DNA of 32,000 nt, from the NCBI RefSeq assembly GCF_000619845.1, contig NZ_JHUX01000009.1, positions 75,019 through 107,018 of the forward strand, given 5' to 3'. The stretch comes from Alkanindiges illinoisensis DSM 15370 (GTDB lineage: Bacteria > Pseudomonadota > Gammaproteobacteria > Pseudomonadales > Moraxellaceae). The notes under the pieces are model-generated. The model did not search any database. It was not told the origin of the DNA and was given only the letters and a program-made list of their open reading frames with translations. This document shows positions 3,815-31,419 of the stretch, one piece after another; positions within the stretch are counted from its first letter, which is position 1, and every line of letters begins with the position of its first letter. Position numbers and translations under genes: made by a program.

Positions 3815-3884
3815 TTTCAAGTCACTTAGATGTTCAGTGCTTCACTTTATTGTAGTAGCAAGAAATTAACTTTTAGAGAAACTT

Positions 3885-4181: not shown

Positions 4182-4270
4182 TTTTATAAATAGCGAGAAA
4201 GAAGTATTAAAGTTTATACTAAATATTTGCTTTATTACTTCAATCTTGACCTTTCTAAAGGTGAGATAGA

Positions 4271-6154: not shown

Positions 6155-7061
6155 TAATTTGTTTTCAAAAACAACTTTGATGATTGCGCTATTTGGATTA
6201 TCAAATCTAACGTTCGCTAAAAATGAAACTCCTGTACAAGACAGTAATATTACAAAAAATATGAAAATTCTTTTACAGGAATCTGGAGGATTAAAGTATT
6301 CCCTTCAAGAGCGTTATCCAGAATATTATTCAATGGAAAATGCGAATATGGGGGATAAGAGTGTCCAGATTGCGCTTGAGAACTCTAACTCACCTCATGA
6401 CAATCATCTTAAAGAACATGGTGGACAAATTTATCAAACGACAAAATTTGAAAATGAATGGATGGTTGATGAAGACGGTAAGGGCAACCTAGGAACAAAG
6501 TTTGAAACTTTAATTGGAACAGATGAAAATCGTCTATTTATTGAAGCGAATTTGGATAAGCCAGAAAGCCATGACCCCAAATATGATGTGTCAGCACTTT
6601 ATAGCCGCAATGTAGAACCTTTTTGGGATTTACAAGCTGGGGTGAGATACAGTGAAGATAAAAATAACAGCAACAGCGATCGAGTTGATGGTGTTATTGG
6701 GGTATTAGGGCTAGCACCTTATTTCTTTGAAACCCAAGCTTATTTATATGGTGGGGAAAATAACTTTTGGGGAGCAAGTTTTGAAGTCGAACGTGATTTC
6801 TTGTTAACCCAGAAATTGATTACCCAACCTTACCTAGAAGTAGATGCTGTATTTAGTGATGATTCTAACTATGCTGCTAAATCAGGTTTATCAGAATTAA
6901 AAACTGGTATTAAAACGCGGTATGAGATAACTAAAAGAATCAGACCTTTTATTGATGTGGCTTATCAATATGAAAAAGGACAAAAAGCGACTAGTATGCA
7001 AGAAGCTACTGAGTCTGAAAAAGGTTGGAAATATGGTGCAGGTATCGAATTAGTTTTTTAA
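6141..7061 (+). CDS. copB: Copper resistance protein B (CopB/PcoB outer-membrane protein)
   Basis: Signal peptide (...SNLTFA/KN) and a C-terminal beta-barrel-like sequence ending GAGIELVF. The start overlaps the copA stop by 14 nt and is preceded by AAGGGAG. This is the classic copA-copB order. Confidence 0.85.
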   Translation: MHITNNLFSKTTLMIALFGLSNLTFAKNETPVQDSNITKNMKILLQESGGLKYSLQERYPEYYSMENANMGDKSVQIALENSNSPHDNHLKEHGGQIYQTTKFENEWMVDEDGKGNLGTKFETLIGTDENRLFIEANLDKPESHDPKYDVSALYSRNVEPFWDLQAGVRYSEDKNNSNSDRVDGVIGVLGLAPYFFETQAYLYGGENNFWGASFEVERDFLLTQKLITQPYLEVDAVFSDDSNYAAKSGLSELKTGIKTRYEITKRIRPFIDVAYQYEKGQKATSMQEATESEKGWKYGAGIELVF

Positions 7062-7078
7062 GGTAATATGACTTAGTA

Positions 7079-7110
7079 TCATGAATGATAGCTTTGGCTA
7101 TCATTCATGA
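7079..7110 (+). terminator. Stem-loop after copB (14-bp perfect stem TCATGAATGATAGC / GCTATCATTCATGA, loop TTTG)
   Basis: Perfect inverted repeat 18 bp after the copB stop. The downstream tract is only moderately T-rich. Confidence 0.5.
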
Positions 7111-7172
7111 AATTATTGCTATTTAATTTCGAATCTGTAAAACTAAAAAAGCTTAAATTTTGGTCTAAATCT

Positions 7173-7568
7173 ATGCAGTGGTTAAAGACATGCCTATCGC
7201 TGTTTTTATCGTTTGCTATCCTGTTCGTCGGATCGGCTGCTGTTGCTTCGTCTGTACATAAGCGGTGTTTAATGCCATCTGAACAGATGCAACCTATACC
7301 AATGGAAGCATCTCAAAATCAGGATACAATGCACACTGATTGTATGAAAGTAGAGACAAAGGCCAAAAAATCTTTACATGATCCATCCTGTATGTCTGAG
7401 CAGGAGTGCATTATGTCTTTTGCCAAGATTGCGTATACCCCTTCTCCGCAAGAATTTCTGTACGCAAAGGTGTTCCCTCCTATAGAGCGATCGGCTTTTT
7501 ATTCTCTGGATCAAAACCTTCCTGCTCCTTTTCCTTCTGTTCTCTGGAAACCTCCACGCTCTATCTAA
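7173..7568 (+). CDS. Hypothetical exported Cys/Met/His-containing protein between the pco-like and cus-like modules
   Basis: The track ORF is 7107-7568, but its ATG lies inside the terminator stem. The ATG at 7173 gives MQWLKTCLSLFLSFAILFVGSAAVASS..., a plausible signal or anchor sequence. I recognise no family. The assignment rests on position only. Confidence 0.4.
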   Translation: MQWLKTCLSLFLSFAILFVGSAAVASSVHKRCLMPSEQMQPIPMEASQNQDTMHTDCMKVETKAKKSLHDPSCMSEQECIMSFAKIAYTPSPQEFLYAKVFPPIERSAFYSLDQNLPAPFPSVLWKPPRSI

Positions 7569-7647
7569 TTTAATGATTCATCGTCATTCATAGCATTTTT
7601 ATGGATGTTCTGCGCGTGCGCGTGTATATCATTTTAGAGCTAAAAAT

Positions 7648-8952
7648 ATGAAATTTTATAAAGAAAAGCTATCTCGCAGGGTGAGATGGCCGATAGGTGT
7701 GATCTGTTTTTCTCTGGTCTATGGCCAAGTCTATGCCCAGCCACTGACCTTGGATACAGCTTTGAATCTCGCTGAGCAATATGCACCTACCCTAAGAGCA
7801 AATAGCGCCCAGATTGAAGGGGCCGAGAATGTAGTTTCAGCTTCAGGGATTTTACCCAACCCTAAATTATTTGTAGGTTTAGATAATTACCCTGTATCCG
7901 GCGATGCCGCATGGTCAGTCACACGCGAAGGTATGACTATGCAGAAAATTGGCGTGATGCAAGATTTTCCAAATCGTGCCAAAAGACAAGCTGAGGTCGA
8001 TTTAGCAAAAGCTGAACTAGGTTCGGCCAATGCTCAAACTGAGATTCTGCGTATTGAGTTGCGTCAGAAAGTCGCATCTGCTTGGCTTAAGCGCTTTTAT
8101 CTTGAACGTAAATTAGCACTATACGATGAACTGTTTTCAGAGAATCGATTACTTTCTCAAATTACTCAAACACAGGTCATCTCTGGTCGTACAATCATTG
8201 CCGATGCACTTGATCCAAGACAAGAAGCCACGGTATTGCTTGACCAGAAGGATGATTTACTTCGTGATTTAAATAAAGCCAAGTTGGAGTTGCATCGGTT
8301 AGTCAGTGCAGAACCTACTGAAAATCTCTCTCAAATTGAAACCTTACCTGACCAAGCACCATCTATCTACCTTGATAGATCAAAGCTATATCATCATTTG
8401 CATCAACATCCTGAATTAAAAGCATTTCAGGCAGAAAAGCAAACTGCTGAAGCAAAACTGAAGCAAGCTCAGGCTTTACAGAAACCAGATTGGGGTATTG
8501 AACTTGCTTATCAGCATCGAGCACCCGAATTTGGCGATATGATCGGGGTGCAACTAACAACAGAGCTTCCTGTGTTTTCAAAAAGACGTAGTAGTCCACT
8601 CATTCGGGCAGCTTTAGCCGAACAAAACAGGATTACTGCCGATCAAGAAGTCCAATACCGTGACCATCTCACTATGCTAGATGATGGGTTATCCGATCTT
8701 GATGCACTTGATCAGCAAATTAGACGTGCGATGCAAACAAGTATTCCACTCGCTAAACAAAAAGTGGGTTTACAGTTGGCAAGCTATCAAGCAGGTAAAA
8801 GTAATTTATCTAATGTTATTGCTGCTCGACAAGCTCTTTTAGAACAGCGTTTGCGTCTCATTGATCTCCAACAGCAACAGGCTGTGACTAAAGCCCAACT
8901 TTATTATGCCTTTGAAGAACCGACCTTAAACCATGTTGAGGGGCAGCCATAA
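7648..8952 (+). CDS. cusC: Outer-membrane efflux protein (TolC/CusC family) of an HME-RND system
   Basis: Signal peptide, then LTLDTALNLAEQYAPTLRA, typical of the OEP family. The two-repeat architecture is present. The stop overlaps the cusB start (ATAATG). Confidence 0.85.
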   Translation: MKFYKEKLSRRVRWPIGVICFSLVYGQVYAQPLTLDTALNLAEQYAPTLRANSAQIEGAENVVSASGILPNPKLFVGLDNYPVSGDAAWSVTREGMTMQKIGVMQDFPNRAKRQAEVDLAKAELGSANAQTEILRIELRQKVASAWLKRFYLERKLALYDELFSENRLLSQITQTQVISGRTIIADALDPRQEATVLLDQKDDLLRDLNKAKLELHRLVSAEPTENLSQIETLPDQAPSIYLDRSKLYHHLHQHPELKAFQAEKQTAEAKLKQAQALQKPDWGIELAYQHRAPEFGDMIGVQLTTELPVFSKRRSSPLIRAALAEQNRITADQEVQYRDHLTMLDDGLSDLDALDQQIRRAMQTSIPLAKQKVGLQLASYQAGKSNLSNVIAARQALLEQRLRLIDLQQQQAVTKAQLYYAFEEPTLNHVEGQP

Positions 8953-10442
8953 TGTTAAGAAATAAATTAGCAGTTACTGTCATGGGCGTTGCGGTAATTA
9001 GTCTGGCTGCGGGTGGTGGCGCTGGATACTGGATTGCACATCAGAAATACAATCCTCAATCAGGTCCGCAACAGGCTGCCAAAGTGTTGTATTGGTATGA
9101 CCCAATGAAGCCTGAACAGCATTTTGATAAACCGGGGAAATCGCCATTTATGGACATGCAACTGGTTCCTAAATATGCAAATGAAAATACTACGATGACT
9201 GAAGACAGTTATCCTGCGGTTAAGATTGATCCATCCCTCCAACAAAATTTAGCCATCCGTTACGGCACAGTTGAACAGGCTGTAATTGGAAATGCCATGT
9301 TTACTAATGGCATATTACAAGCAAATGAACGGCAAACAGCTATTTTACAAACTAGAGCAAGTGGCTTTGTTCAGCGAGTGTACGGGCATGCTGTTGGAGA
9401 TATGGTGACCGAAGGAAACCCTATAGCTGATATTTCAATACCGGAATGGACTGGAGAGCAAACTGAATTTTTAGCTGTGCTCCGTACTGGAGATCGTTCC
9501 CTTATTCAAGCAAGCCGTCAACGTTTACAGCTTTTAGGAATACCACAAAATGTGATTCATCAAGTTGAGCGAACTCGTCGAGTGCAATCTAATATAACTT
9601 TGCAAGCTCCAACTAGTGGATTTATTGATTCACTAGAAGTCCGTAATGGTATGGCTTTGGCTATGGGACAAACCTTGGCCACAATTAAAGGTGTCAACCC
9701 GATTTGGCTAGAGGCAGCCGTTCCTGAAAAACAAATTGCTGAAATCAAACGAGGTATGAGTGTAGAAGCCAATTTTGCTTCTTTTTCTCAAAAAGTAGCT
9801 GGCAAAGTTATCGACATTTTGCCTACCTTAGATACAACATCAAGAACTATTAAAGTTCGGATTGAATTACCAAATCCTAGTGGTCAACTTAAGCCAGGGA
9901 TGTTTGCTTCTGTCAATATAATAAATAATCCTCAAAGCAGTTTGGTTATACCAGAGCAAGCTGTTATACGGACAGGTACTCGGAATGTTGTCATTGTAGG
10001 GCATGAGCAAGGACGTTTTGAACCTGTTGTAGTACAGTTAGGTCAAAGTGATGGCAATAAAATTGCAATTCTACAAGGGTTGAAAGCTGGTCAGAAGGTA
10101 GTAATTTCAGGGCAATTCCTGATTGATTCTGAAGCAAATTTACAAGGTGTATTGGATAAGCTGAACACTGGACAATCGATGACTTCATCCCAAGTGGTTA
10201 AGACATCAATATATCAAGGCATTGGTAAAGTTGAAAAAGTCACAGCTCAAGACATTACCATTTCACATCAGGCGATTCCTGAGTTGGGTTGGGGGGCTAT
10301 GACTATGAGCTTTAAACAACCAGTGCAACCATTTACCCAAATTCAGCAAGGCGATCAGGTCCGTTTTAGTTTTACACATGCTAGAGATACTTACGTTATT
10401 TCTGACATTTCCAAGATGTCTATGACATCTATGAAGAACTAA
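8952..10442 (+). CDS. cusB: RND periplasmic adaptor (CusB/SilB family) with a fused C-terminal CusF-like domain
   Basis: N-terminal [27 protein letters not shown] motif, then a barrel-sandwich/beta-barrel MFP core. The last ~76 aa (nt 10212-10439) read [18 protein letters not shown]..., which carries the CusF H/W/M/M metal-site pattern. Confidence 0.9.
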
Positions 10443-10456
10443 ACGGGAGGACGATT

Positions 10457-13400
10457 ATGATTGCCCGTATTATTCGTTTTTCAATTGCGAATCGTGTATT
10501 TGTCCTGTTAGCCGCTTTAATTCTGGCTGCTTGGGGAACTTGGGCCGTAAAGAATACTCCGGTCGATGCATTACCAGATTTGTCTGATGTACAAGTAATT
10601 ATTCGAACTAATTTTTCTGGTCAGGCGCCACAAATTGTTGAAAATCAGGTGACCTACCCTTTAACAACAACCATGTTATCGGTACCTGGTGTTAAAACTG
10701 TTCGCGGTTATTCTTTTTTTGGTGACTCATTTGTTTATGTCATCTTTGATGAGCATACGGACCTTTACTGGGCCCGTTCTCGTGTATTGGAGTATCTAAA
10801 TCAAATTCAAGGGAAAATGCCTGCAAATGCGAAATCTTCATTGGGACCAGATGCCACTGGCGTTGGTTGGGTTTATGAATATGCATTGGTAGACCCAACA
10901 GGACAGCATGATCTTTCGGAGCTGAGAAGCATACAAGACTGGTTTTTAAAATATGAACTGAAGACATTACCTAATGTGGCTGAAGTTGCCACAATTGGGG
11001 GAATGGTTAAGCAATATCAGGTCATCTTAGACCCAAGCAAGATGGCTGCTTTAGGTGTCACACAAAACAATGTCATTGAGGCGATTCAAAAGGCTAATCA
11101 GGAAACTGGTGGTTCAGTTCTAGAAATGGCTGAAACGGAATATATGGTGCGAGCTTCTGGTTATTTAAAAACTTTAGATGATTTTCGCCAGATTCCACTA
11201 CGAACAAATAGTTTCGGTGTTCCTGTTTCTTTAGGTGATGTTGCAACTATTCAACTTGGTCCAGAAATGCGTCGTGGCATCAGTGAATTGAATGGGCAAG
11301 GTGAAACGGTTGGGGGTGTCGTGATTTTACGAGCAGGTAAAAATGCACGTGAAACGATTACTGCTGTGAAAGCGAAGCTAGCTGAATTACAACAAAGTCT
11401 ACCGAAAGGTGTACAAGTTGTTCCTGTATATGATCGCAGTCAATTGATTGATAGAGCAGTAGAAAATCTCAGCCATAAATTAATTGAAGAGTTCATTGTG
11501 GTGGCTTTAGTCTGTGGACTATTCCTCTGGCATTTACGTTCAGCAATGGTGGCTATTGTTTCTTTGCCGCTTGGGATTTTATCTGCTTTCTTGGTGATGC
11601 ATTATCAAGGGCTAAATGCCAATATCATGTCGTTGGGTGGTATTGCTATCGCGATTGGCGCTATGGTTGATGCTGCAATTGTAATGGTTGAAAATGCACA
11701 TAAGCATATCGAAACTTGGCAACACGAACATCCTGAGCAAGTCTTGGAAGCACAAGTCCGTTGGAACATCATTACACGTTCTGCCAGTGAGGTCGGGCCA
11801 ACTTTATTTTTCTGTCTACTCATCATTACCTTATCCTTCATTCCTATTTTTACTTTACAGGCACAAGAAGGTCGCTTGTTCTCACCACTGGCATTTACTA
11901 AAACCTATGCAATGGCAGCAGCAGCAGGTTTATCTATTACCTTGATTCCCGTTTTAATGGGTTATTGGATTCGAGGGAAATTACCTTCTGAACAGCGTAA
12001 TCCACTGAACCGTTTTCTGATCAAAATATACAGCCCTATGTTGGATAAGGTTTTAGCTCATCCAAAGACAATTTTACTTGGTGCATTGCTAATTTTCCTT
12101 ATTAGTCTTTTCCCTTTAACACGGTTAGGTGGGGAGTTTCTACCCAATATGGATGAAGGTGATTTACTGTATATGCCTTCAGCTTTACCGGGATTGTCCG
12201 CAGCAAAAGCTTCTGAGCTACTCCAACAGACTGATCGAATGATTAAAACCGTTCCTGAAGTTGCAACAGTATTCGGTAAAGCTGGTCGCGCTGAGTCAGC
12301 CACAGATTCTGCACCATTAGAAATGTTTGAAACCACGATTCAGTTCAAACCACGGTCTGAATGGCGTTCAGGTATGACACCTGACAAATTGATAAAAGAA
12401 CTAGATAAGGCAGTCCAAGTACCGGGTTTAACAAACATTTGGGTGCCACCTATCCGTAACCGGATTGATATGTTGGCAACTGGGGTGAAAAGTCCAATCG
12501 GGATTAAGATTTCAGCAAATGATCTGCAAGATATTGATCGGGTAGCACAGCAAATTGAACAAGTGGCTAAACAGGTGCCCGGTGTTAGTTCAGCTTTAGC
12601 TGAACGGCTCACAGGTGGTCGATATGTTGATGTCGATATTAACCGTATGCAGGCTGCGCGATATGGTCTCAATATTAAAGATGTACAGCAAATCGTCTCA
12701 TCAGCGATTGGCGGGGAAAATATTGGTGAAACTGTTGAAGGCTTGGCACGGTATCCCATTAATGTACGTTACCCACGAGAGATTCGAGATTCACTGGAAG
12801 CCTTAAGAAATTTACCGATTCTAACAGAATCTGGTCAACAAATAGTCTTGAGTAGTGTTGCTAATATTCAAATTACAGATGGGCCGCCAATGCTTAAAAG
12901 TGAGAATGCCCGTCCAAGTGGTTGGGTCTATGTCGATGTACAAGGACGTGACTTAGCTTCGGTTGTACAAGATTTGAAGCAGGCCATAGACCAAAAAGTA
13001 AAACGTTCTTCTGCCATGAGCATTAGCTATTCAGGACAGTTTGAGTTCATGGAGCGTGCGAATGCTCGCTTAAAAGTTGTTATTCCAATTACTTTGATGA
13101 TCATTTTTCTATTGCTCTATTTGATTTTTAGGCAAGTACAAGATGCTGTTCTGATTATGGCAACACTACCTTTTGCGTTGATTGGTGGTATTTGGGCTAT
13201 GTACTTGAGTGATTATCACTTTTCGGTTGCGATTGCTGTTGGTTTTATTGCACTTGCTGGTGTTGCCGCAGAGTTTGGTGTAGTCATGTTGTTCTATTTA
13301 AAGCAAGCAATTGAGCATGCACAGCAAAGCCTATCTTCTTCAACGGCATCCTTAACAGAGCAACAACTCAATGAGGCAATTCATACAGGGGCCGTGCTAC

Positions 13401-13603
13401 GTGTTCGCCCTAAAGCAATGACAGTCGCTGTCATTTTGGCGGGGTTAATCCCTATTCTGTTGGGGACTGGAACAGGTTCTGAATTAATGAGTCGTATTGC
13501 TTTACCTATGGTTGGGGGCATGATTTCAGCCCCTCTCTTATCTATGTTTGTTATCCCTGCGGCATATCAGCTTTTAATCAAAAGAAAACTATCAAAGAAT
13601 TGA
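10457..13603 (+). CDS. cusA: Heavy-metal efflux RND pump CusA (Cu(I)/Ag(I) type)
   Basis: 1048 aa with the 12-TM RND architecture and a typical HME-RND N-terminus ([18 protein letters not shown]...). Positioned in the cusC-cusB-cusA-cusF order. Confidence 0.95.
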
Positions 13604-14320: not shown

Positions 14321-15800
14321 GTAACTCCAAAATAGAAATGTCCGGTTTCTCCAAAGTAAAAATGTCCGCTTTTAGAATATGCACTTTTGCAATTTCCTTA
14401 GCGGACGGTTTGATATGTTGGTGTCTATGTCGGATAAAGAACTTAAACGATTGTCGGTCTTGCAGGAAATCTGCGATCAACGCATAACTCAATCCCAGGC
14501 TGCTCAGCTACTTCATATTTCAGAACGTCAGATCAGACGCTTACTGCAGAAATACAAAGCCCAAGGTCCAGCTGCATTAGCCCATGCCGGTCGTGGCCAA
14601 ATCAGCAATTCTAAACTTCCTGAAGAACTCAGACTCAAGTGCCTCAATATTGTTTCTGACCAACTCCATGGTTTCGGACCCACTTTAGCGCATGAAAAGC
14701 TCACCACCGTACATGGATTCGATCTTTCAGTAGAAACCCTGCGTTCTTGGATGATTGCAGCTGATTTATGGATTCCTCGCGCCAAGCGTCTGAAACGCCC
14801 GTATCAGCCTCGTTACAACCGGGACTGTTATGGTGAACTGATCCAAATTGATGGCTCACACCATGACTGGTTTGAAGGACGCGCTGCTAAATGCTGTCTG
14901 CTGGTGTTTATCGATGATGCTACAGGAAAATTGCAGCATTTACGCTTCTGTGAGTCAGAATCAACCTTTGACTATATGATTTCAACACGTTTATATGTCG
15001 AACAGCACGGTAAGCCTTTAGCGTTTTACAGCGACAAACATTCAGTCTTTAGAGTGAATCAAAGCAGCAAGAAAGACACCAAGATTACCCAGGTTGGACG
15101 TGTACTCAGCACCCTGAATATCGATATCATCTTCGCTAATTCACCGCAGGCCAAAGGCCGTGTGGAACGGGCCAACAGAACCCTTCAGGACCGTCTGATC
15201 AAGGAGATGCGCCTGAAAGGCATCTGTTCGATTGAGCAAGCTAATGTCTGGCTACCCTGCTTCATTGAGCAGTTCAATCAGAAGTTCGCCAAGATGGCTT
15301 TTAATCCTAAGAATCTACATCGGACTGTCACTGAAACAGCCGAAGAATTAGATGATATTTTTACCTGGCGTGAACCTCGCAGAGTCACGAATAGCCTGAC
15401 GATTACTTATGATAAATGCGTCTATCTGCTGGAAAATACAGAAGAAAACCAGAGTCTCATGGGTAAATACATTGAATTTCTAGAATACCCAGACGGTACG
15501 GTCGCCATTGAATATCAGGGAAGAAAAATCAATTACAGCATCTTCGATAAATTAAGTCAGCTGAACCAGCGAGAGATTGTTGAGAATAAACGTTTGAGTT
15601 CAGTCTTGGCCCATATCCAGCAACAGCATGAAGAACTGGAACAGCAAAACAAACGAAGTCGTTCTCAATCTATGCCACGTAGACGAGCACAGAAAACAGC
15701 AATTCAACAACGAAATCTGAATCCTGTGCTTGACTTGGAAATGTCTGTATAGGACATTTCTATTTGGTTATTAGGTAGGACATTTCTACTTGGGAATAAC
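14321..15800 (+). mobile_element. Intact insertion sequence, IS1202-group (ISNCY)/IS481-like, ~1.48 kb
   Basis: Terminal inverted repeats are GTAACTCCAAAATAGAAATGTCC (14321-14343) and GGACATTTCTACTTGGGAATAAC (15778-15800), matching at 19 of 23 positions. There is a second subterminal copy of the (A/G)AAATGTCC motif at each end (14351-14367 and 15752-15767). A single DDE transposase lies between them. The flanks (TAAATT / AGCCGG) show no direct repeat. Confidence 0.85.
14379..15752 (+). CDS. IS transposase (N-terminal HTH plus rve/integrase-core DDE domain)
   Basis: LSVLQEICDQRITQSQAAQLLHISERQIRRLL forms the HTH. The DDE candidates are IQIDGSHHDW, FYSDKHSVF and GRVERANRTLQDRL. The true start may be the internal Met (MLVSMSDKELK or MSDKELK). 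Confidence 0.9.
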   Translation: MHFCNFLSGRFDMLVSMSDKELKRLSVLQEICDQRITQSQAAQLLHISERQIRRLLQKYKAQGPAALAHAGRGQISNSKLPEELRLKCLNIVSDQLHGFGPTLAHEKLTTVHGFDLSVETLRSWMIAADLWIPRAKRLKRPYQPRYNRDCYGELIQIDGSHHDWFEGRAAKCCLLVFIDDATGKLQHLRFCESESTFDYMISTRLYVEQHGKPLAFYSDKHSVFRVNQSSKKDTKITQVGRVLSTLNIDIIFANSPQAKGRVERANRTLQDRLIKEMRLKGICSIEQANVWLPCFIEQFNQKFAKMAFNPKNLHRTVTETAEELDDIFTWREPRRVTNSLTITYDKCVYLLENTEENQSLMGKYIEFLEYPDGTVAIEYQGRKINYSIFDKLSQLNQREIVENKRLSSVLAHIQQQHEELEQQNKRSRSQSMPRRRAQKTAIQQRNLNPVLDLEMSV

Positions 15801-15886: not shown

Positions 15887-16882
15887 TTAACCCGTCAGCT
15901 TCCATGCTTGCCAGATCTGATCAATTTTTGCCAGCTGTCTGGCTTTTTCGGCATCACTTAGCCAGGAGGCAATAAAACTATTTCTGGCCAGTTGCACGAT
16001 ATCCTGATCAGACAGGTTGAGCGCCGTGGTGCAGGCTTTAAAGTTGTCATTCACATAACCGCCAAAGTAGGCCGGATCATCCGAGTTAATCATGACCATT
16101 AAGCCCATATCCAGCATCTGCTTTAAGGGATGTTGCTTTAGGGAAGGGAAAACTTTCAGGCGGATATTTGACAGTGGGCATACCGTCAGGGGTGTCTGGT
16201 CAGCCACCAGTTGCTTGAGCAGCTGATCATTTTCAAGGCTGCGCACGCCATGATCAATGCGCTTTACCTTCAACAGATGCAGCGCATCCAGCACATATTC
16301 AGCAGGGCCTTCTTCCCCGGCATGTGCCACACAGGGCAGGTTTAATGCCTGGCAACGCTTAAACAACTGTTCGAACTTGGCCGGTGGATGGCCCTTTTCA
16401 CTGGAATCCAGCCCGAAGCCATCTATGCCATGCAGAAAAGGCAAAGCCTGTTCGAGAATCTCAAAACCTTCCTGCTCAGTCAAATGCCTTAAAAAGCTCA
16501 TAATCAGTCTGGATGACAGGCCCCATTGTGCCTGTGCCTCATCTAATGCCTGGCGAATGCCCTGATACACGGTGGCAAACGGTACACCCCGCAAGGTATG
16601 GGTTTGCGGATCAAAAAAGATTTCCGTGTGGACGACGTGATTACTATGGACTTTTTGCAGATAAGCCCAGGTCAGGTCATAAAAATCCTGCTCGGTCAGC
16701 AACACGGCTGCACCAGCGTAATACAGGTCTAAAAAAGATTGCAGGTTATGAAAATCATAGGCGGCGCGTAACTCGTCAATACTGGCATAAGGCAAATTGA
16801 CATGATTGCGCTGGGCCAGTGCAAACATCAGTTCTGGTTCAAGCGTGCCTTCAATATGCAGATGCAGTTCGGTTTTGGGCAA
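15887..16882 (-). CDS. add: Adenosine/adenine deaminase (amidohydrolase superfamily, Pseudomonas Pa0148-like type)
   Basis: [39 protein letters not shown] and [11 protein letters not shown] are hallmark motifs. The start is a TTG, and an in-frame TAA sits 6 codons upstream, so the 5' end is uncertain or slightly shortened. Confidence 0.85.
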
Positions 16883-16992: not shown

Positions 16993-17171
16993 CAGTTAGC
17001 GCTAAGGCATGACCAGCAATTAGCCAGTATCAGGCCAGCACGCTGCTGTTTGAGTCATTATGCCTGTTTCAGTATAACCACTATGCATAGTGTAGCCCCT
17101 TTGCTGGCGTGGCATAGAGGTTGCTTCTTTTATTTCTTATAAAACACCGTGTAACGATGCAGAGCTGATCT

Positions 17172-17747
17172 CAATACCGAGGTTGGTTCATCCAGAATGA
17201 GCAGTGCCGGGTTTTGTAGCAAGCAGCGTACGATTTCTACCCGTTGCCGCTCCCCAACCGATAAACTATGGACAGTGCGTTTGGGATCAAGCGGCAGGCC
17301 ATATTTTTCCGATACCTCAATCACCCGGGCTGACAGTGCCGCCAGCTCAAATTTTCCCTCGAGTCCCAGCGCGATATTTTCCGCCACGGTCAGGGTTTCA
17401 AACAGGGAAAAATGCTGATACACCATGCCAATTCCTATGCGGCGCGCTGCTGCCGGGCTCTCAATGCTGACTGAACGGCCATTCCAGATGATTTCACCCT
17501 CATCAGCTGTGGCCGCGCCATAAATGATTTTCATCAGGGTACTTTTGCCTGCCCCGTTTTCACCCAGAACCGCATGAATTTCGCCCACCCCCACCTTTAA
17601 ACTGATATGGTCATTGGCAAGCAGCGCGTTATAGCGTTTGGTGATATTGACCAGTTCCAGACGCGGCGGTGCGTTTTCAGCAATGGGGTGCTGTGCTGTA
17701 GTAATTTCACCTATAAGCGGATTTTTAGTGCAATCAGCGCTGTTCAT
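17172..17747 (-). pseudogene. Truncated ABC transporter ATP-binding protein (N-terminal half of a duplicated-ATPase sugar/nucleoside-type importer)
   Basis: Walker A GENGAGKST, Q-loop, signature LSVGERQR and Walker B LILDEPTSVL are followed by unrelated residues RSALHRYTVFYKK and a stop. The second ATPase half expected for this family is missing. Homology is lost at about 17171/17172. Confidence 0.8.
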
Positions 17748-17794
17748 GTTTAAAACTTCTCCAACGTTCACCAGCCTTTTGCAATTGCTAAATA

Positions 17795-18475
17795 CATTGC
17801 CAGCCAGGGCTGGCTGCCAATCAGGCTGCGTGTGGTCTGGCACTCACCATTTTTGGGGTAGGCCTGTCGGCGTTCATCGGGCAAAGCTTTGTCAGTACCA
17901 GTTTGCCCGGTTTACAGCCGTTAAGCATTCCCGGCCTGTCTACAATTCCCTTTATTGGCCCGGTTCTATTTCACCAAAACTATGTGGTGTACCTGTCGAT
18001 GATTGTGCTGTTGCTGGTCTGGTGGGTATTGGCAAAAACCCGTTTGGGGCTACTGCTCAAGGCAGTGGGCGAGTCGCCAGAGTCAGCACATGCCATGGGC
18101 TACCGTGTACTAGCCATCCGCTATGGTGCGGTACTTTTTGGGGGGGCGATGGCCGGAATTGGCGGGGCATTTTTATCTACGGTCTATACGCCGCTCTGGG
18201 TAGAAAACATGGTGGCAGGTCGTGGCTGGATTGCCATTGCACTGGTGGTATTTGCAACATGGAAGCCGCTGCGCCTGATGCTCGGGGCTTATTTGTTTGG
18301 TGGAGTGACCATCCTGCAATTTCATGCGCAGGCATTGGGGGTTGAGGTGCCTGTCGAGTTACTGGCGGCACTGCCGTATCTGGCAACCATTATAGTGCTG
18401 GTGATGATTTCCCGTGACCATAAATTATTGCGGATGAATCTCCCGGCATCACTCGGCAAATCATTTTTGCCTTAA
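17795..18475 (+). pseudogene. Truncated ABC transporter permease (C-terminal part only)
   Basis: The frame is open from 17792. The translation ...NQAACGLALTIFGVGLSAFIG...LLKAVGESPESAHAMGY...GRGWIAIALVVFA... is typical of the C-terminal half of BMP/ribose-type permeases. There is no N-terminal half and no start context. It abuts the 5' end of the inverted ATPase fragment. Confidence 0.75.
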
Positions 18476-19353: not shown

Positions 19354-19815
19354 TCAGTGGTCTCGCACTTCATTGTCAAAGGCAGGCCCCATTGTGCCAA
19401 TAGCAAAAGAGCCAGCCGCTGTTGCCAGCAGTTCGCCACTTTCTTCTGCAAACGCACGGCCGGTAATAAAGGCAACTGTATCTGTCCTGCCGATGCAATC
19501 CACTACAGCCTTTAAACCCATTGCCGCGGGAATGCTACGTAGAAAATCGACACGCAAATCAATGGTGGCAATTGGTTCCAAAGAGCGCAATGATGAAAAA
19601 ATAGACAAGCCGCACGTGGTATCAAGCAGTGTTACCAGGGCTCCCCGGTGCAGCGCACCCTTACGGTCCGCCAGTTGTTCAGAGAAGGGCATGCTCATTT
19701 CGGCATGACCATTGCTCACGGCGCCGACATTAATATTGAACATATTGAACAACGCATGATTCGTCCCAAAAAACGCTTTAGCCATCGTAAGATGTGTCGC
19801 GTTATTACCGTCCAT
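19354..19815 (-). CDS. PaaI/hotdog-fold thioesterase (first of a tandem pair)
   Basis: GALHRGALVTLLDTTCG motif, about 150 aa. The stop is 1 nt from the next ATG (TGAtATG). GGGAG RBS. Confidence 0.75.
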   Translation of the reverse strand: MDGNNATHLTMAKAFFGTNHALFNMFNINVGAVSNGHAEMSMPFSEQLADRKGALHRGALVTLLDTTCGLSIFSSLRSLEPIATIDLRVDFLRSIPAAMGLKAVVDCIGRTDTVAFITGRAFAEESGELLATAAGSFAIGTMGPAFDNEVRDH

Positions 19816-19870: not shown

Positions 19871-20839
19871 TCAGAGTGCAAGGGCGGCATCTACATAATT
19901 GCGCTCTGTCTGCATGACCGCAAAAATTGCCGCTTCAATGGCAGCATGCGGAAAGTCCGGGCTTTCAGAAGCCGATTTCAGGCACATGGCTAAAGCAGTC
20001 CATGTTTTTTCACAAGCCCGCATTAACAACGGCAACTGCTGCTGCTGTACACCGGCGTTATAGTGAATCGCCTCATCAAGGAACTCGGCATACATTTTCC
20101 GGAACCCGCCGCCACCTGTTCCACGCTTCTCGATGACCTGATAGGCAAAGCGGGTGGTCCAGTGCCAGTCACCTGTGCTGCCCCAGCGCCCAAGGTCATC
20201 TAGCCAGGTTTGCAGGGCCGATAGACCCCCTGTGGCTAATGAGCTGGCATTGTCACGGATGACCTGGGTGATTATCTCGGGCGTAATGTGCCCTTGAAAT
20301 GCGTTCGGGGTGAACATGTTGCCATGATGAATAAACGGCGGCTGCGTAGAAAATCGCGCGCGCGTGAGAGCCTGTTCGCTCACGGACAGCACATCAGGGC
20401 GCTCAGTGTCAGTAACCAGAATCTCGCCCGTCTCTGGGTTTTTCGACCAGGCCGCAATGGCGTGACCGGGAAAGTGAGTGGTGCTGTTAAAGTAAGGCAG
20501 GTAAAAAATATCTGTCAGCAGCAGGGTGGGGCGTCCCGCATCCAGGCAGTTGCCAAGCGCTACGGCTGCCAACTCGGGGGAATCGAAAGTTTGCCATTCA
20601 AAAGGTATGCCCAGGCTTTGAAATACGCGTGCTTCAAATCCCAGGGAACGCACATGCACTAAAAATGGCACAGGGGCATCCGCCGCTAGCTCCAGGTAAG
20701 TCACCCCAAGCCCTGAACCTAATCCAAGGCACATGGCCTCAGAAATAGTCAGCCCATTAAATTCAAGCAGGTCACGAATTGCAGAGCTGCCACAATGTCT
20801 CCCGATGGCATGGGTAATTTGAACATCCCGTTTCTTCAC
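19871..20839 (-). CDS. BtrH-like protein (BtrH N-terminal Cys-peptidase-fold domain plus DUF4872-type C-terminus)
   Basis: The N-terminal HAIGRHCGSSAIRDLLEFNG pattern (candidate nucleophile Cys) and overall length match the butirosin BtrH-like family, as far as I recall it. A GTG start overlaps the TetR stop (GTGA). Confidence 0.6.
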   Translation of the reverse strand: MKKRDVQITHAIGRHCGSSAIRDLLEFNGLTISEAMCLGLGSGLGVTYLELAADAPVPFLVHVRSLGFEARVFQSLGIPFEWQTFDSPELAAVALGNCLDAGRPTLLLTDIFYLPYFNSTTHFPGHAIAAWSKNPETGEILVTDTERPDVLSVSEQALTRARFSTQPPFIHHGNMFTPNAFQGHITPEIITQVIRDNASSLATGGLSALQTWLDDLGRWGSTGDWHWTTRFAYQVIEKRGTGGGGFRKMYAEFLDEAIHYNAGVQQQQLPLLMRACEKTWTALAMCLKSASESPDFPHAAIEAAIFAVMQTERNYVDAALAL

Positions 20840-21474
20840 AGGTTTTTTGCCTCGTCGTGAAAATCCATATTAAGTATGCCTCTTGTCATCATTTGCCATA
20901 TGGCATCAGCGATTTGTTCAAGATTGTACTTTCCATTGTCCTTATACCAGGTGGCCGCCCAATTGATGGCGCCTAGGCCAATAAGCCTTAACAGATCCAC
21001 ATCCACATCCTTACGGATAAAACCCTGAGTCTTCAGCTCATTTAGGATGGCGTGCCAATATTGTTCGTATCGGTCTCGTTCGGCGATCATCTGCTCACGT
21101 GCGGCACCATGGAGCGAGCGCCACTCAAACAAAAGCACATATACCATATCATCACCAGACATGAGTACATTAAGATGGGCGTGCAGTGCCGATTTCATTT
21201 TTTTTAGAGGATCCTGGATCATTGAGGTTGCTTCAATGATCCCGTGGATAGTTCTTTCAATGGCCAGCTGCATCATATCAACCAGAATATCATCCTTACT
21301 GCGATAGCGATAATGAAGGCTGCCGGGAAGAATGCCGCAAGCCCTTGCAATTTCTCGGACGCTTGCACGCTCAAAACCCTTTTCCCGGAACAGCCTGGCA
21401 GAGGCAGCGAGCACTCTTTCGCGGTCTGTAACCTCGACTCGAGCAGATTCTCGACTTAACACGGCTTCACTCAT
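20836..21474 (-). CDS. TetR/AcrR-family transcriptional regulator
   Basis: N-terminal HTH ILAASARLFREKGFERASVREIARACGILPGSLHYRY, about 210 aa. Confidence 0.9.
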   Translation of the reverse strand: MSEAVLSRESARVEVTDRERVLAASARLFREKGFERASVREIARACGILPGSLHYRYRSKDDILVDMMQLAIERTIHGIIEATSMIQDPLKKMKSALHAHLNVLMSGDDMVYVLLFEWRSLHGAAREQMIAERDRYEQYWHAILNELKTQGFIRKDVDVDLLRLIGLGAINWAATWYKDNGKYNLEQIADAIWQMMTRGILNMDFHDEAKNL

Positions 21475-21541
21475 ACTATGGTATCAGACCAATATAATAC
21501 TCGATTTAGTCGTGTAAAATCTTCCAGCACTTCTGCTTATT

Positions 21542-22411: not shown

Positions 22412-22542
22412 GGTAAAGGTCTCCTTTAAAGCGATTAAACGGACGTAGACCTGCTATCAGCTTTGCCCTCAGGGGCGAGACAGGTCATGAGTTACCGTCT
22501 GAACCAAAGTCAGACTGACTGCTCGGTCAAGTTCAAATTAGC

Positions 22543-22571
22543 ACTATATTGGTCAATTGACCAAATGTCAA
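22543..22571 (-). promoter_or_regulatory. Consensus-like sigma70 promoter with an operator palindrome as spacer (promoter A)
   Basis: The minus strand reads TTGACA-TTTGGTCAATTGACCAA-TATAGT, i.e. -35, a 17-bp spacer and -10. The spacer contains the perfect 16-bp palindrome TTGGTCAATTGACCAA (22549-22564). Confidence 0.8.
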
Positions 22572-22649: not shown

Positions 22650-23861
22650 TTAACGGCCGGTCAGTGCACCCAGAAGATTTTTTGCTTCGGAATGGCTCAT
22701 GTATTTCGGCACGGCATAGGTGCCATGCGCCTCGGCAAATGCAGCATTTGCCATGGCTTCAAAGTCGCTGCTGTTCATGCCGGGAATACGCGTATCAATG
22801 TTTAACTCAACAAGCAGTGCCTTGACATGGGCGATAAGGGCGTCAGTTGCTTTTGCATCACTAACGCTGGCCTCAGCGAGGCCAGTCTGCCGGGCCAAAG
22901 CTGCCAGGCGCTGGCGTGATGCCTTGCGGTTAAACTCAAGGATATGCGGCATCACAATTGCATTTGCGCGGCCATGGGGGATGCCATAGTAGGCGCCGAG
23001 CTGGTGTGCAATGGCATGAATATAGCCAAGACCTGCCTGATTTAGCGCCAGACCTGCATAATGGGAGGCCAGGGCCATGGCTTCGCGTGCATTCAGGTTG
23101 TTGCCATCACGCCAGGCCAGTGGCAGGTTTTCAAAAATCAGGCGAATTGCTGCACCCGCGTAATAGTCACTTTCTGGCGAAGCAAATTCACTGACCCAGG
23201 CCTCCAGTGCATGGGTTAAGGCATCAAGGCCGGTATCGGCCGTCACGGAACGTGGCATGCCCTGCATGATTTTTGGATCCAGCGCAGCAGCAAGCGGCAC
23301 CAGCTTCGGGTCAATGACCAATCCTTTCTGGTGGGACTGGTTGTCAGAAAGTACTGCGCCGATACTGACTTCCGATCCCGTTCCTGCGGTGGTGGGTATG
23401 ACAAACAAGGGTAGTGAGCGCTTGCTGCCCTTGAATATGCCAATCAGTTCTTGTGGGGTTTTTTTGTTGGTGGCTGCCAGGGCAATGACCTTGGCTGCAT
23501 CAATCGATGAGCCGCCACCGACGGCCAGCACACTGTCGCAATGAGACGACTGTAGTACTGACAGCCCGTCTTCAACCACACGAATGGTAGGGTCAGGGCT
23601 AACCCCGGAAAACACCGAGGTCTGGATACCATGCTGTTTGAGCGCCTTCTCCAGCGGCTGGATCAAACCCAAGTCATACAGGATTTGATCAGTAACAATC
23701 AGCACATGACTGACCCCGAGATGGGAGATGGTTGAGCACAGCCTGAGTGCCGAATCGGGGCCGACCAGGACAAGAGGACGCGGGACAGGCACAATGCGGA
23801 TAACCAGTTTAAGCGCAGCCAGCTGTGCTTTTGCCTTTAGGATAGTGGTCAGGATTGCCAT
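22650..23861 (-). CDS. Iron-containing (group III) alcohol dehydrogenase
   Basis: GGGSSIDAAK, TTAGTGSE and the His-rich metal site (HAIAHQLGAYYGIPHGRANA) are typical of the Fe-ADH family. Confidence 0.9.
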   Translation of the reverse strand: MAILTTILKAKAQLAALKLVIRIVPVPRPLVLVGPDSALRLCSTISHLGVSHVLIVTDQILYDLGLIQPLEKALKQHGIQTSVFSGVSPDPTIRVVEDGLSVLQSSHCDSVLAVGGGSSIDAAKVIALAATNKKTPQELIGIFKGSKRSLPLFVIPTTAGTGSEVSIGAVLSDNQSHQKGLVIDPKLVPLAAALDPKIMQGMPRSVTADTGLDALTHALEAWVSEFASPESDYYAGAAIRLIFENLPLAWRDGNNLNAREAMALASHYAGLALNQAGLGYIHAIAHQLGAYYGIPHGRANAIVMPHILEFNRKASRQRLAALARQTGLAEASVSDAKATDALIAHVKALLVELNIDTRIPGMNSSDFEAMANAAFAEAHGTYAVPKYMSHSEAKNLLGALTGR

Positions 23862-25163: not shown

Positions 25164-25336
25164 GAGATGTCTCCGGTGGGGGTGATAGGGCTTGGGGGGT
25201 CAACTTCAAACGTAACGGCAGTCAAGGGCCGGCTGATGCACGCCAATGCGTAATGGGCCTTGCGTTCCTCCGGCATCAGACAATTCGGTTCATCCATGTC
25301 AACTTCGCCGTTAAGAATTTTCACGCGACAGCGCCC
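25160..25336 (-). pseudogene. Remnant of a plant-type [2Fe-2S] ferredoxin domain (last ~58 codons only)
   Basis: The minus-strand frame gives GRCRVKILNGEVDMDEPNCLMPEERKAHYALACISRPLTAVTFEVDPP...*. The last Cys of the C-x4-C-x2-C cluster is present and the fourth ligand Cys lies 30 residues later, but the first two Cys are missing. The stop overlaps the oxygenase start (ATGA). Confidence 0.7.
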
Positions 25337-26135
25337 ATTCAGCCAGCCAAGAATTAACCTTTTCTGGGATTTCGGTGTCGCTAGGATGGAAACCTGGCTT
25401 AAACCAGTCCAGATAGCGTGGAATAAGTCTGGTAATCAGGCCACGTGGTCCATAGAGGCGATAAAATCCCTTAGCAAGCACCAATGGCTGACCTTGTAGT
25501 TTGTCAATTTTCAACATATGCCAAAGAACTGAGCCAACCACCGCATGTACCAGTAGCGTTCCGATAATCAAAGCAGATGCGCGGGTGAAATACCCCCCAC
25601 CTGCCGCTGTTTCGTAAACATCAAAGGCTACTGTTTTGTGTTCGACTTCTTCTACCCCATGCCACATGAACATGGCACGCATTGCGGGATGAGCATTCTT
25701 GAACATCTCACCCTCACCCTCCATAGCACCCTCGCCTAGTACAGCAGTAATATGTTCAAAGGCAGCTGTCATGGCCAACAGATACTTGGCGGGCAGGTGT
25801 TTTTGGGAGAGCCGAATAAATAATTTGAATCTTGCGATGACCTTTTCGACATGAATGCCTTGCGACTGCATCACCGCATTATACTGGTCATGCACAATGC
25901 CATGTTGCGCTTCTTGGCGAAAAAAGTTTTTGATATCTTCTCTCAGTTTAGGATCTGTGACCAGATCCTGATAGTTACGCACCGACTGAATAAAAAAACG
26001 CTCTCCATCGGGGAAGTGAATAGAAAGTGCATCAAAGAAGCGTGTTAACACCGGGTCACCGTCGTTCCAAAAAACTGGAACATCACTTAAATCAAACCGC
26101 GGCTTACGTGGCTGGATATTGATCATATGAGTCAT
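25311..26135 (-). CDS. 'Predicted metal-dependent hydrolase'-family protein, paralog 2 (C-terminus replaced at a deletion junction)
   Basis: Start at MTHMINIQPRKPRF (ATG at 26135); the 26201 start in the track is an over-extension. By eye it is collinear and roughly nine-tenths identical to paralog 1 as far as ...WLAE. It then diverges (WALSRENS*) at about nt 25337. Confidence 0.7.
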   Translation of the reverse strand: MTHMINIQPRKPRFDLSDVPVFWNDGDPVLTRFFDALSIHFPDGERFFIQSVRNYQDLVTDPKLREDIKNFFRQEAQHGIVHDQYNAVMQSQGIHVEKVIARFKLFIRLSQKHLPAKYLLAMTAAFEHITAVLGEGAMEGEGEMFKNAHPAMRAMFMWHGVEEVEHKTVAFDVYETAAGGGYFTRASALIIGTLLVHAVVGSVLWHMLKIDKLQGQPLVLAKGFYRLYGPRGLITRLIPRYLDWFKPGFHPSDTEIPEKVNSWLAEWALSRENS

Positions 26136-26254
26136 GGCGAGAGTTTCCTTGTAAAGGCATCGAATGTCTGTAAACCTGCTATCACATTTGACCTTGAGCA
26201 ATATTTTTCACCTTGGTCAGGCACAGCAAATATCACACAAGAATTCAACGGGTA

Positions 26255-26270
26255 TTGGTCAAATGACCAA
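26255..26270. promoter_or_regulatory. Additional operator copy TTGGTCAAATGACCAA (operator B)
   Basis: Same 7-bp arms (TTGGTCA/TGACCAA) as the promoter palindromes. It lies just downstream of the predicted start site of promoter C. Confidence 0.65.
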
Positions 26271-26284
26271 ATGCATATTTTGAA

Positions 26285-26313
26285 TATATATTGGTCGATT
26301 GACCAAATGTCAA
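26285..26313 (-). promoter_or_regulatory. Consensus-like sigma70 promoter with an operator palindrome as spacer (promoter C)
   Basis: The minus strand reads TTGACA-TTTGGTCAATCGACCAA-TATATA. The geometry is the same as promoter A, with one arm mismatch in the palindrome. Confidence 0.8.
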
Positions 26314-29802: not shown

Positions 29803-30123
29803 CTACATTTGAAACTCAGGCAAATGCACCACCATGCCATCCATTGCATCGGACAATTGAATCTGGCACGCCAAACGAGACGACGCCGTACCTTCTGGTA
29901 CCATCTCTAGCATGCGCGCCTCTTCGTCATTGGGCTGTCCTGTCGCCGCCAGCCAAGCACCGTCAACGATCACATGACAGGTTCCACAAGCACATTCGCC
30001 ACCGCAATCTCCATCAATGCCGGATACGCCGTGATCGATAGCCAGTTGCATCAGCGACTTGCCCGCTTCGATGTCAAGTACGGTGGCGGTACCGTCATAC
30101 TCGATCAATGTAATTTGACCCAT
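29803..30123 (-). CDS. [2Fe-2S] ferredoxin (putidaredoxin/adrenodoxin type), P450 redox partner
   Basis: I place the start at the ATG at 30123 (MGQITLIEYDG...), preceded by AGGAG. The Cys ligands lie in CGGECACGTCHV and LACQI. The 30348 start in the track is an over-extension. Confidence 0.9.
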   Translation of the reverse strand: MGQITLIEYDGTATVLDIEAGKSLMQLAIDHGVSGIDGDCGGECACGTCHVIVDGAWLAATGQPNDEEARMLEMVPEGTASSRLACQIQLSDAMDGMVVHLPEFQM

Positions 30124-30339
30124 TATTACTACTCCTGTGTGGTATACGGTTGCTGGTGACGCCGATGAAAATAGCCATCCCTCTTTACTCATAATAGACA
30201 TGTATCCATACTGCTTACAGGTCTCTTGTTGACAATATAGGGTCATTAAAAGACGATTATGGCGCTGTAGCCCCATCGTCGATTGCATTTTTCTAGTCGA
30301 TGTTCTTTCATACTGGTCTGTTATTGAGGTGTTTGAGCC

Positions 30340-31419
30340 ATGTTGCATCCAAGTCTGCTGACTGGTCTCGCCAGTACAAGTGAATCTGCTAATATCCCCT
30401 GTAGCTATACCCGTCTGATTGGCCGAGAGCTGGACTTGCAGGCGCGTGACCTACCTAAACTATTAAAATTCACCACGCTGACCGCTGAACAACTGATGCG
30501 TGACGACACGATGATCACGGCCAGCCAACAGATTCAAATCTTACAAAATAGCTTGGAGTTGTCCGCATCCGATCAGTTTGGCTTGCGTTTAGGGCAGCGG
30601 CTCACGCCGTCAACACATGGCTCGATGGGCTTTTTAATCAATAGCAGCCCGAACTTATTGGCCGTGTTACAAGCGTTTCAAACTTTTTTGCCGACCCGTA
30701 TGAGTTTGATTAGGCTCGAAACACACACCAATGCTGAGTGGACGACCTGCTTGATTTTCTTTGAGCAGACCTTGAGTCATGCAGTACATCGGCTACTGTC
30801 CGAAACTGTTGCGGTGATTTTTTCGGAATGTGCCGAATTTATTGTTGGACGACCGCTGACCGAGGCGGTGATTCAGTTTAGCCATCCCGCCCCCGATCAT
30901 CATGCCTGTTACGCGGATTATCTTGCCGGTACCTATCAGTTTGATCAGCCACAACTGTCGATCCGAGTGCCGACCGAGTTGTGCTTGATTGCCAATGCAT
31001 CCGCGCAGCACGATAGCTATCTGCTGGCGATGCAACAATGCGAAATGATCCTCAACCGGCTCAAGACCCAACAACACAGCACCACCTACCAAGTGCAAAA
31101 AGCCATGCTGTCCTATCCGCTCGGGCAACTGAGTGAAGAGGATCTGGCTGCAGCCTTGTTTATGAATAAGCGTACGCTGGCCAGACGTCTGGTCAAAGAG
31201 AACACGAGTTACCGGCTGATTCGAGATCGGATTTTATCTGAGAAAGCCAGTAGTTATTTACATGACCCTCAAATATCGGTCGAGGCAATTGCCAGCTTAC
31301 TGAATTACCACGACTCTGCTAATTTTCGGCGCGCGTTTAAACGCTGGTTTGGTGTATCACCAAGTGCTTATCGGCGAAAAATCACCCATCGGCAAGAAGA
31401 AAATGACCTGAGAGAATGA
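30340..31419 (+). CDS. AraC/XylS-family transcriptional regulator, divergent from the CYP153 operon
   Basis: C-terminal double HTH (KRTLARRLVKENTSYRLIRDRIL...IASLLNYHDSANFRRAFKRWFGVSPSAYRR). The exact start is uncertain. Confidence 0.85.
   Translation: MLHPSLLTGLASTSESANIPCSYTRLIGRELDLQARDLPKLLKFTTLTAEQLMRDDTMITASQQIQILQNSLELSASDQFGLRLGQRLTPSTHGSMGFLINSSPNLLAVLQAFQTFLPTRMSLIRLETHTNAEWTTCLIFFEQTLSHAVHRLLSETVAVIFSECAEFIVGRPLTEAVIQFSHPAPDHHACYADYLAGTYQFDQPQLSIRVPTELCLIANASAQHDSYLLAMQQCEMILNRLKTQQHSTTYQVQKAMLSYPLGQLSEEDLAAALFMNKRTLARRLVKENTSYRLIRDRILSEKASSYLHDPQISVEAIASLLNYHDSANFRRAFKRWFGVSPSAYRRKITHRQEENDLRE

Follow-up and report, generated by a model that had tools for sequence, protein, structure and literature searches.

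The 32,000-nucleotide stretch of the Alkanindiges illinoisensis DSM 15370 genome analysed here (the window) carries on its minus strand, in this order, genes for a ferredoxin, a CYP153 P450 and a ferredoxin reductase, the genes of promoter P2 and the genes of promoter P1, with an AraC regulator gene transcribed divergently (Table 1). The P1 unit opens with hydB, which is 87% identical to its paralogue hydA. The TetR gene is indeed, as predicted, the second gene of the unit, and the two acyl-CoA thioesterases at its end are the most constant of its presumed co-regulated genes. The genes assigned to P2 probably belong to the same regulon. Since no terminator-like site was called between the stop codon of the alcohol dehydrogenase (ADH) gene and P1, transcripts from P2 possibly read through into the P1 unit.

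Table 1. Features of the P2 and P1 transcription units, in minus-strand order.
Feature	Position	Strand	Remarks
Sister promoter P2: TTGACA, T+TTGGTCAATCGACCAA, TATATA	26285..26313	-	operator O1 at 26291-26306
P2 second operator O2, TTGGTCATTTGACCAA (minus-strand letters)	26255..26270		early transcribed region
hydA, PF10118 "metal-dependent hydrolase"	25311-26135	-	predicted to be P2-driven
Ferritin-like di-iron protein, 398 aa	23967-25163	-	predicted to be P2-driven
Fe-alcohol dehydrogenase (ADH)	22650-23861	-	predicted to be P2-driven
P1 -35 hexamer TTGACA	22566..22571	-	invariant in 22/22 distinct related promoters
P1 operator O1, TTGGTCAATTGACCAA	22549..22564		half-sites TTGGTC / GACCAA, 4-bp variable centre; core conserved with close TetR orthologues
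P1 -10 hexamer TATAGT	22543..22548	-	consensus scan; conserved at fixed distance
Predicted P1 5' leader, ~125 nt	22412..22536	-	start site inferred
Degenerate O2 remnant of P1, TTGACCGAGCAGTCAG	22515..22530	-	aligned to O2 of relatives; 4/12 core positions wrong
Leader block TGATAGCAGGT	22449..22459	-	common to P2 leader 26174-26184
hydB, PF10118 predicted metal-dependent hydrolase, 289 aa	21542..22411	-	first gene of P1 unit; E 1.5e-79
Candidate internal promoter TTTACA-16-TATATT	21491..21518	-	10/12; no operator; just upstream of tetR
tetR, 208 aa from GTG start	20836..21462	-	Pfam TetR_N + TetR_C_24/TetR_C_4
BtrH_N/DUF4872 protein, 322 aa	19871..20839	-	start overlaps TetR stop by 4 nt
PaaI-type hotdog thioesterase 1	19354..19815	-	co-occurs with TetR in loci L001-L061
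PaaI-type hotdog thioesterase 2, 148 aa	18906..19352	-	last gene of unit

The original prediction placed the TetR gene at 20836-21474. The gene is present, but its start is not the ATG at 21474 with which the frame opens in the window and for which close relatives have ACG or GCG; the start that is conserved is the GTG at 21462, which was also chosen by gene callers on identical metagenome contigs. The candidate promoter just upstream of it is conserved in loci L001 and L009 and not in the plasmids of the L003 type; it may provide basal synthesis of TetR, making autoregulation partial. Besides this promoter-like site the hydB-tetR intergenic region (21491-21541, minus strand) contains an imperfect hairpin, TACACGA-CTAAA-TCGAGTA, and in the L003-type plasmids the same region has a perfect palindrome with 10-bp arms, ACTCGACTTG-AC-CAAGTCGAGT. 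The di-iron protein shows no Pfam family above threshold, with weak resemblance to AurF (E 5e-4) and to R2-like ligand-binding oxidase; elsewhere its gene and that of a reductase upstream of it share 4 nt. The pair of proteins is suggestive of a two-component oxygenase within the TetR regulon. At the head of the cluster, the 181-aa mechanical ferredoxin ORF (29803-30348, minus strand) overlaps the start of the divergent AraC gene; the true ferredoxin begins at 30123 and has 106 aa, in agreement with the gene calls made on identical contigs.

Read on the minus strand from 22571 to 22543, P1 consists of TTGACA, T+TTGGTCAATTGACCAA and TATAGT, correct to the base as it had been read, with a 17-bp spacer, GGCGGGT on the 5' side of the -35 hexamer and GCTAATT on the 3' side of the -10. 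It has the hexamers near TTGACA and TATAAT, 16-18 bp apart, that characterize a sigma70 promoter, and is the top-ranked match (11/12, 17-bp spacer) in a sigma70 consensus scan of 18.5-31.5 kb and the sole match of at least 11/12 in a scan of all 32 kb. TTGGTCAATTGACCAA is likewise the sole 16-bp perfect palindrome in all 32 kb, and lies at the same spot; the near-consensus promoter with a palindrome in its spacer is thus as it was described. The short dyad overlapping a promoter that is typical of TetR-family regulator (TFR) switches is seen here as a 16-bp dyad occupying the P1 spacer. Dinucleotide-shuffled windows contain on average 0.78 promoters of at least 11/12 and 0.52 perfect 16-bp palindromes: either element singly is unremarkable, and their coincidence within 29 bp is not due to chance. 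When up to two mismatches are allowed, TTGGTCANNTGACCAA has three matches in the window where 0.10 are expected, and none of 100 shuffles reaches three; the matches lie in the P1 spacer, in the P2 spacer and downstream of P2.

The proposal that the spacer operator serves the TetR of its own unit is supported by phylogenetic footprinting. Seventy-nine genome loci were retrieved solely by similarity to the cluster TetR, and TTGACA-T-TTGGyC-N4-GrCCAA is present in all 15 of those in which the TetR is at least 64% identical, upstream of the hydrolase/TetR/BtrH/PaaI operon and across different gene orders. These loci come from Acinetobacter species and plasmids, Moraxellaceae MAGs, Agitococcus and unclassified Pseudomonadota; their -10 hexamers are TAAAAT, TATATA/T, TATGTT, GATATT, GATAGT or TATGAT, and the flanks on either side of the cassette are unconserved. 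Conserved hexamers between drifting flanks, the pattern of a sigma70 promoter, thus mark P1 at its orthologous loci, and the conservation of the -35 in these protein-retrieved loci is free of any search pattern. In Agitococcus (L012-14), which has no hydrolase gene, the tetR gene comes first after the promoter, as it does in L102, and the cassette is kept in both cases. Among loci with a TetR of less than 55% identity the motif is almost never present. The operator is therefore co-inherited with its regulator across genomes, in the manner of a TFR switch.

A metagenome scan for the -35 hexamer plus operator returned 39 loci, approximately 28 of which have hydrolase/TetR/BtrH/PaaI genes directly downstream. 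The -10 hexamer was not part of the search pattern, yet it follows the consensus nATAnT in the 22 distinct related promoters (A2 in 17, T3 in 15, A4 in 18 and T6 in 18), and this conservation supports a working sigma70 promoter. A few related operons (L090/L096/L100 and L124) carry the cassette with no TetR gene in the operon, which makes the link between TetR and operator one of co-occurrence only. Operator-like sites upstream in L092 and L103 are found beside transposase and toxin-antitoxin remnants and were discounted.

Alignment of 39 distinct operator copies reveals that the 6-bp arms TTGGyC and GrCCAA alone are conserved, the central 4 bp taking 28 different values. The perfect 16-bp palindrome that had been reported is present in P1, but its perfection is incidental, because the central four bases vary freely. 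At positions 5 and 12 (T/C and A/G) the combinations are T/A in 16 sites, C/A in 10, T/G in seven and C/G in six; the two positions are thus non-Watson-Crick in 17 of the 39 sites, which is what independence predicts. Such independent variation points to protein recognition of two half-sites and not to a hairpin. Judged by these copies, the functional operator is two 6-bp half-sites. This provides a testable operator consensus, aT-TTGGyC-N4-GrCCAA, for an apparently unstudied TetR clade, and the occurrences of the operator pattern TTGGYCNNNNGRCCAA in TetR-bearing complete genomes would delimit the regulon.

The sister promoter of the original prediction is present at 26285-26313 and is identical in many Acinetobacter plasmids and genomes. 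A second operator, O2, is found in 17 of 23 distinct related promoters and absent from six; it begins 32-36 bp after O1, within the early transcribed region, in 16 of the 17 two-operator promoters, and 21 bp after it in L102. In P1 the site that aligns with it is too degenerate to be accepted as a second operator. O2 persists in L001, the nearest orthologue of the P1 operon (88% identity), and its loss from P1 is therefore recent. Two operators are the usual design, with P2 keeping the second and P1 having lost it, and repression of the single-operator P1 may be weaker or differently tuned. Both leaders also show everted TGACC...GGTCA repeats, which were discounted as additional sites because their conservation does not extend beyond close relatives. 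The P1 leader contains, at the would-be O2 (22508-22520, minus strand), a 13-nt palindrome, AGTCAG-T-CTGACT. A (TA)n run at the P2 -10 (26283-26290) varies in length between otherwise identical Acinetobacter copies (L002, L005, L006, L007 and L080), the variants being CCAATATATATTCAAAA, CCAATATATTTCAAAA and CCAATATATTCAAAA; its length alters the -10 hexamer and also sets how far the start of O2 lies from that of O1 (36, 35 or 34 bp), and slippage here could tune expression.

The long 5' leader predicted for P1 would, as described, measure approximately 125 nt. It can be aligned with that of P2 along its whole length, 74 of 134 P1 leader positions being identical, with TGATAGCAGGT as the longest identical run. 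The block ACCTGCTATCA, held to be conserved between the two leaders, is present in both but is mutated in orthologues, reading TGATATCAGTC in L009 and GGATAGTACGT in L001; we read it as residual paralogy with no separate cis-element. A search of the P1 leader at a permissive E-value gave no Rfam family, the best score (E = 0.85) belonging to an unrelated sRNA inside hydB. Folding compared with shuffled sequences is not significant for either leader (P1 z = -0.93, P2 z = -1.61), and the consensus fold of six orthologous leaders (RNAalifold) shows no covariation, its only structure being the O2 DNA palindrome. A leader RNA element of the riboswitch or attenuator type was rejected on these three counts of family, stability and covariation. 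A conserved upstream ORF was also discounted: the 17-codon P1 ORF (22488..22435) spans the shared block, where P2 has an ATG-TGA only.

The TetR protein has the HTH and ligand-binding domains of its family, PF00440 (E 6e-14) with PF17932 (E 4e-26) or PF08359. Within the operator-bearing clade the recognition-helix motif LPGSLHYRY does not vary, and the longer segment LPGSLHYRYRsKdDIL is essentially invariant in each TetR that accompanies the operator and changed in more distant TetR relatives. In Marinobacter, Limnobacter, Spongiibacter, Pseudomonas and Halioxenophilus, TetR orthologues of 45-50% identity have a divergent PaaI pair on one side and an AraC-ferredoxin-CYP153 cluster on the other (L017-L061); this context indicates that the core of TetR and two PaaI genes, and its association with CYP153, are old. 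Upstream they have a related perfect 20-bp dyad, TTGGTTGGTTAACCAACCAA, followed by a conserved AAGTCAAG (e.g. L019, 5827-5846). The operator has diverged in step with the TetR protein.

There are 83 PDB TetR-family matches to the cluster TetR. The nearest solved structures are PfiT/I2, 3vpr, a 5k7f chain, KstR2 and Bacillus FadR; PfiT/I2 is the best of these (E 1e-31, approximately 38% identity over 179 residues). We take 3vpr to be Thermus PfmR and the 5k7f chain to be Myxococcus AibR. PfmR, AibR, KstR2 and Bacillus FadR respond to acyl-CoA or fatty acids. PfiT is described as the homologue of Pseudomonas aeruginosa PA2885 (PMC3873459). PA2885 is AtuR, which represses the atu cluster for fatty acids and acyclic terpenes. 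AtuR is autoregulated and has one inverted-repeat operator lying between and over the -35 and -10, and citronellic or decanoic acid releases it in EMSA (bioRxiv 10.1101/2025.09.24.678253). The likeness to AtuR lies in this best structure match and in an operator likewise set between the -35 and -10. The two also differ: the AtuR operator is TACAAACCAAGCGCTTGCTTGGTA whereas that of the cluster is TTGGyC-N4-GrCCAA, the recognition helices read GSIFHHF and GSLHYRY respectively, and AtuR is transcribed divergently from its target whereas the cluster TetR gene stands second in the operon to which it belongs. The targets also differ, being the atu carboxylase and dehydrogenases for AtuR and, for the cluster TetR, the PF10118 hydrolase, the BtrH-like protein and the PaaI thioesterases. 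Given the different operator, the absence of atu genes from the window and the identity of only approximately 38%, orthology with AtuR was rejected.

Bacillus FadR (YsiA) and Thermus PfmR/FadR belong to the same Pfam C-terminal families (TetR_C_4 YsiA-like and TetR_C_24), the corresponding PDB matches being 1vi0, 3whb and 3vpr. In Bacillus subtilis, fadR is the second gene of the repressed operon lcfA-fadR-fadB-etfBA, and long-chain acyl-CoA releases FadR. Both differ from the present regulator in operator sequence, and the cluster-regulated genes are not beta-oxidation genes; against the Bacillus-type FadR equivalog NF053878 the cluster TetR scores 75.4 bits where the cutoff is 200, and the assignment was rejected. 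Tn10 TetR is a dimeric repressor with short palindromic operators, tetO1 and tetO2, overlapping a promoter. Its two tandem operators resemble the common P2-type layout, but they serve a divergent promoter pair and differ in effector class and operator, whereas here the operator fills the spacer of a single promoter and P1 has one operator. The operator of Escherichia coli RutR is TTGACCAnnTGGTCAA, with nearly the same heptamers in a TetR-family dyad. The likeness is superficial since the half-sites stand in the opposite order (TTGACCA..TGGTCAA against TTGGTCA..TGACCAA in the cluster); identification of the cluster TetR as RutR was rejected at 27 versus 368 bits.

The mechanism in question, a TetR dimer on a spacer operator with autoregulation, is textbook; the repressor clade is unstudied. 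No publication on this TetR or its operator came to light in literature searches that covered the operator sequence, PfiT and a TetR beside CYP153 in Marinobacter or Acinetobacter. Papers on the same Acinetobacter plasmid region mention the CYP153 genes only, and Acinetobacter sp. Tol 5, for which a hexadecane transcriptome is available (PMC13572102), carries the same plasmid cluster.

From the promoter-operator features and their co-conservation with the TetR clade, both of which are observed, we infer the following switch. P1 would be the strong sigma70 promoter of an operon hydB-tetR-btrH-paaI-paaI, with its transcription start placed from the -10 hexamer. A dimer of the operon's own TetR would bind TTGGTC/GACCAA in the -35/-10 spacer and exclude RNA polymerase, resulting in negative autoregulation. 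The same protein would bind both P2 operators, in the spacer and in the early transcribed region, and P2 would drive hydA, the di-iron oxidase and the Fe-alcohol dehydrogenase. An effector would then free the repressor, most likely a fatty acyl-CoA or fatty acid from CYP153 alkane oxidation. We consider this scheme, taken as a whole, to be very probable. Taken alone, the idea of an acyl-CoA or fatty acid inducer arising downstream of CYP153 is only a guess by analogy, though the most economical one, made because of the AtuR, PfmR and FadR relatives and the co-regulated thioesterases.

One might argue that P1 is mainly a relic and that the genes downstream are expressed chiefly by read-through from P2, given the lack of a called terminator-like site before P1, its lost second operator and the mosaic of two modules that the window represents. 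This is unlikely: P1 is the best promoter match of the window (11/12), is identical base-for-base in two upstream contexts (L081 versus L082), and has in L001 an orthologue that is the sole promoter of the operon, while a single operator is also found in six of the 23 distinct related promoters. The operator might also be real but bound by a regulator encoded elsewhere, with the cluster TetR controlling something else, as the TetR-less operons of L090/L096/L100 and L124 could indicate. We give little credence to this, since the operator accompanies close TetR homologues in 15/15 loci, is almost absent with distant ones and tracks TetR through three gene orders. Moreover, a 16-bp dyad of 6-bp half-sites suits a TetR dimer, and AraC, the only other nearby regulator, is missing from many operator-bearing loci.

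A nucleic-acid function for the palindrome, either as a terminator or attenuator of the upstream ADH gene or as a structured RNA, is suggested by its position 79-101 nt downstream of the ADH stop and by a terminator scan that flagged the P2 palindrome as terminator-like. However, no T-run follows the P1 palindrome, and it is the sequence that is conserved and not the pairing, as the 17/39 non-Watson-Crick combinations at positions 5 and 12 attest; the hairpin or terminator was rejected on this half-site independence and the absent T-tract. Furthermore, single-operon relatives have no upstream gene to terminate, the palindrome always sits between -35 and -10 hexamers, and neither an Rfam match nor significant folding was obtained, so that this explanation is exceedingly improbable.

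A broader interpretation, possible but doubtful at present, is that the operator marks a conserved, uncharacterised regulon which travels with CYP153 clusters in Moraxellaceae, Marinobacter, Limnobacter, Pseudomonas and others. It would supply alkane oxidation with a "lower" or CoA-homeostasis module that has so far been missing, and an acyl metabolite would switch it. Its members would be TetR, two PaaI thioesterases, the BtrH-like acyl-transferase/peptidase and the PF10118 hydrolase, joined in some lineages by the di-iron oxidase with its reductase and by the alcohol dehydrogenase. If this broader interpretation is true, the TTGACA-T-operator-(-10) cassette could serve as it stands as a sensor for that acyl metabolite. 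The present findings already place several proteins of unknown role in one presumed regulon: the PF10118 hydrolase, the protein resembling BtrH, both PaaI thioesterases and the di-iron oxidase. Once the effector is known, the compact combination of strong promoter and operator could become a biosensor. Plasmids that are widespread in Acinetobacter, among them clinical ones of A. baumannii, carry this TetR clade, and in marine oil degraders it lies beside CYP153 alkane hydroxylases.

A third cassette, ATAACA-T-TTGGTCTTACGACCAA-ATTAAT, is located in L001 (4520-4560) upstream of a gene for a 557-aa GMC (AlkJ-like) oxidoreductase, and extends the regulon there to alcohol oxidation. On metagenome contigs whose sequence matches that of the window exactly as from the di-iron gene, hydA and P2 give way to a gene for an FNR-like reductase; it is preceded by an unusual array of 3.3 tandem 31-bp units, each with an operator (L082, 6628-6730; also L084-L087). 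Each unit has TTGGyC-N4-GrCCAA and its own -10-like TAAAAT or TAAATT, at a spacing of approximately three helical turns.

The hydA gene is 100% identical to a plasmid hydrolase gene (L080, 7749-8615) for 267 codons, and the last seven codons diverge (25311-25334, its 3' end). This divergence marks a recombination junction between a CYP153/hydA module and a di-iron/ADH/P1 module. On the Acinetobacter haemolyticus plasmid NZ_CP139049 a P2-type promoter precedes a TetR of the window type (99%) and a hydrolase that shares 90% identity with hydB; this arrangement looks like a hydA/hydB recombinant minus the di-iron/ADH/P1 segment. A PLSDB search returned no match to the di-iron/ADH segment. On related plasmids, copies of the Tn3-family element ISAcsp1 flank the CYP153/TetR segment.

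Beyond the P1 operon, at 17130-18475, are ABC transporter fragments, namely ORFs for an ATPase (237 aa) and a permease (190 aa); a long ORF of the other strand overlaps these fragments, which look like pseudogene remnants. An adenosine deaminase gene is found at 15887-16882. A copper/silver resistance island occupies 1687-13603 and comprises a two-component system (1687-3736), a CopA-like multicopper oxidase (4271-6154) in which the Met/His-rich motif DHDMSSMKGM is repeated eight times, CopB (6141-7061), a small secreted protein (7107-7568) and CusC/CusB/CusA-like RND efflux genes (7648-13603). Between this island and the deaminase gene lies, on the plus strand at 14379-15752, a 457-aa transposase-like ORF with an HTH and an integrase-type core, which is consistent with a mosaic mobile region.
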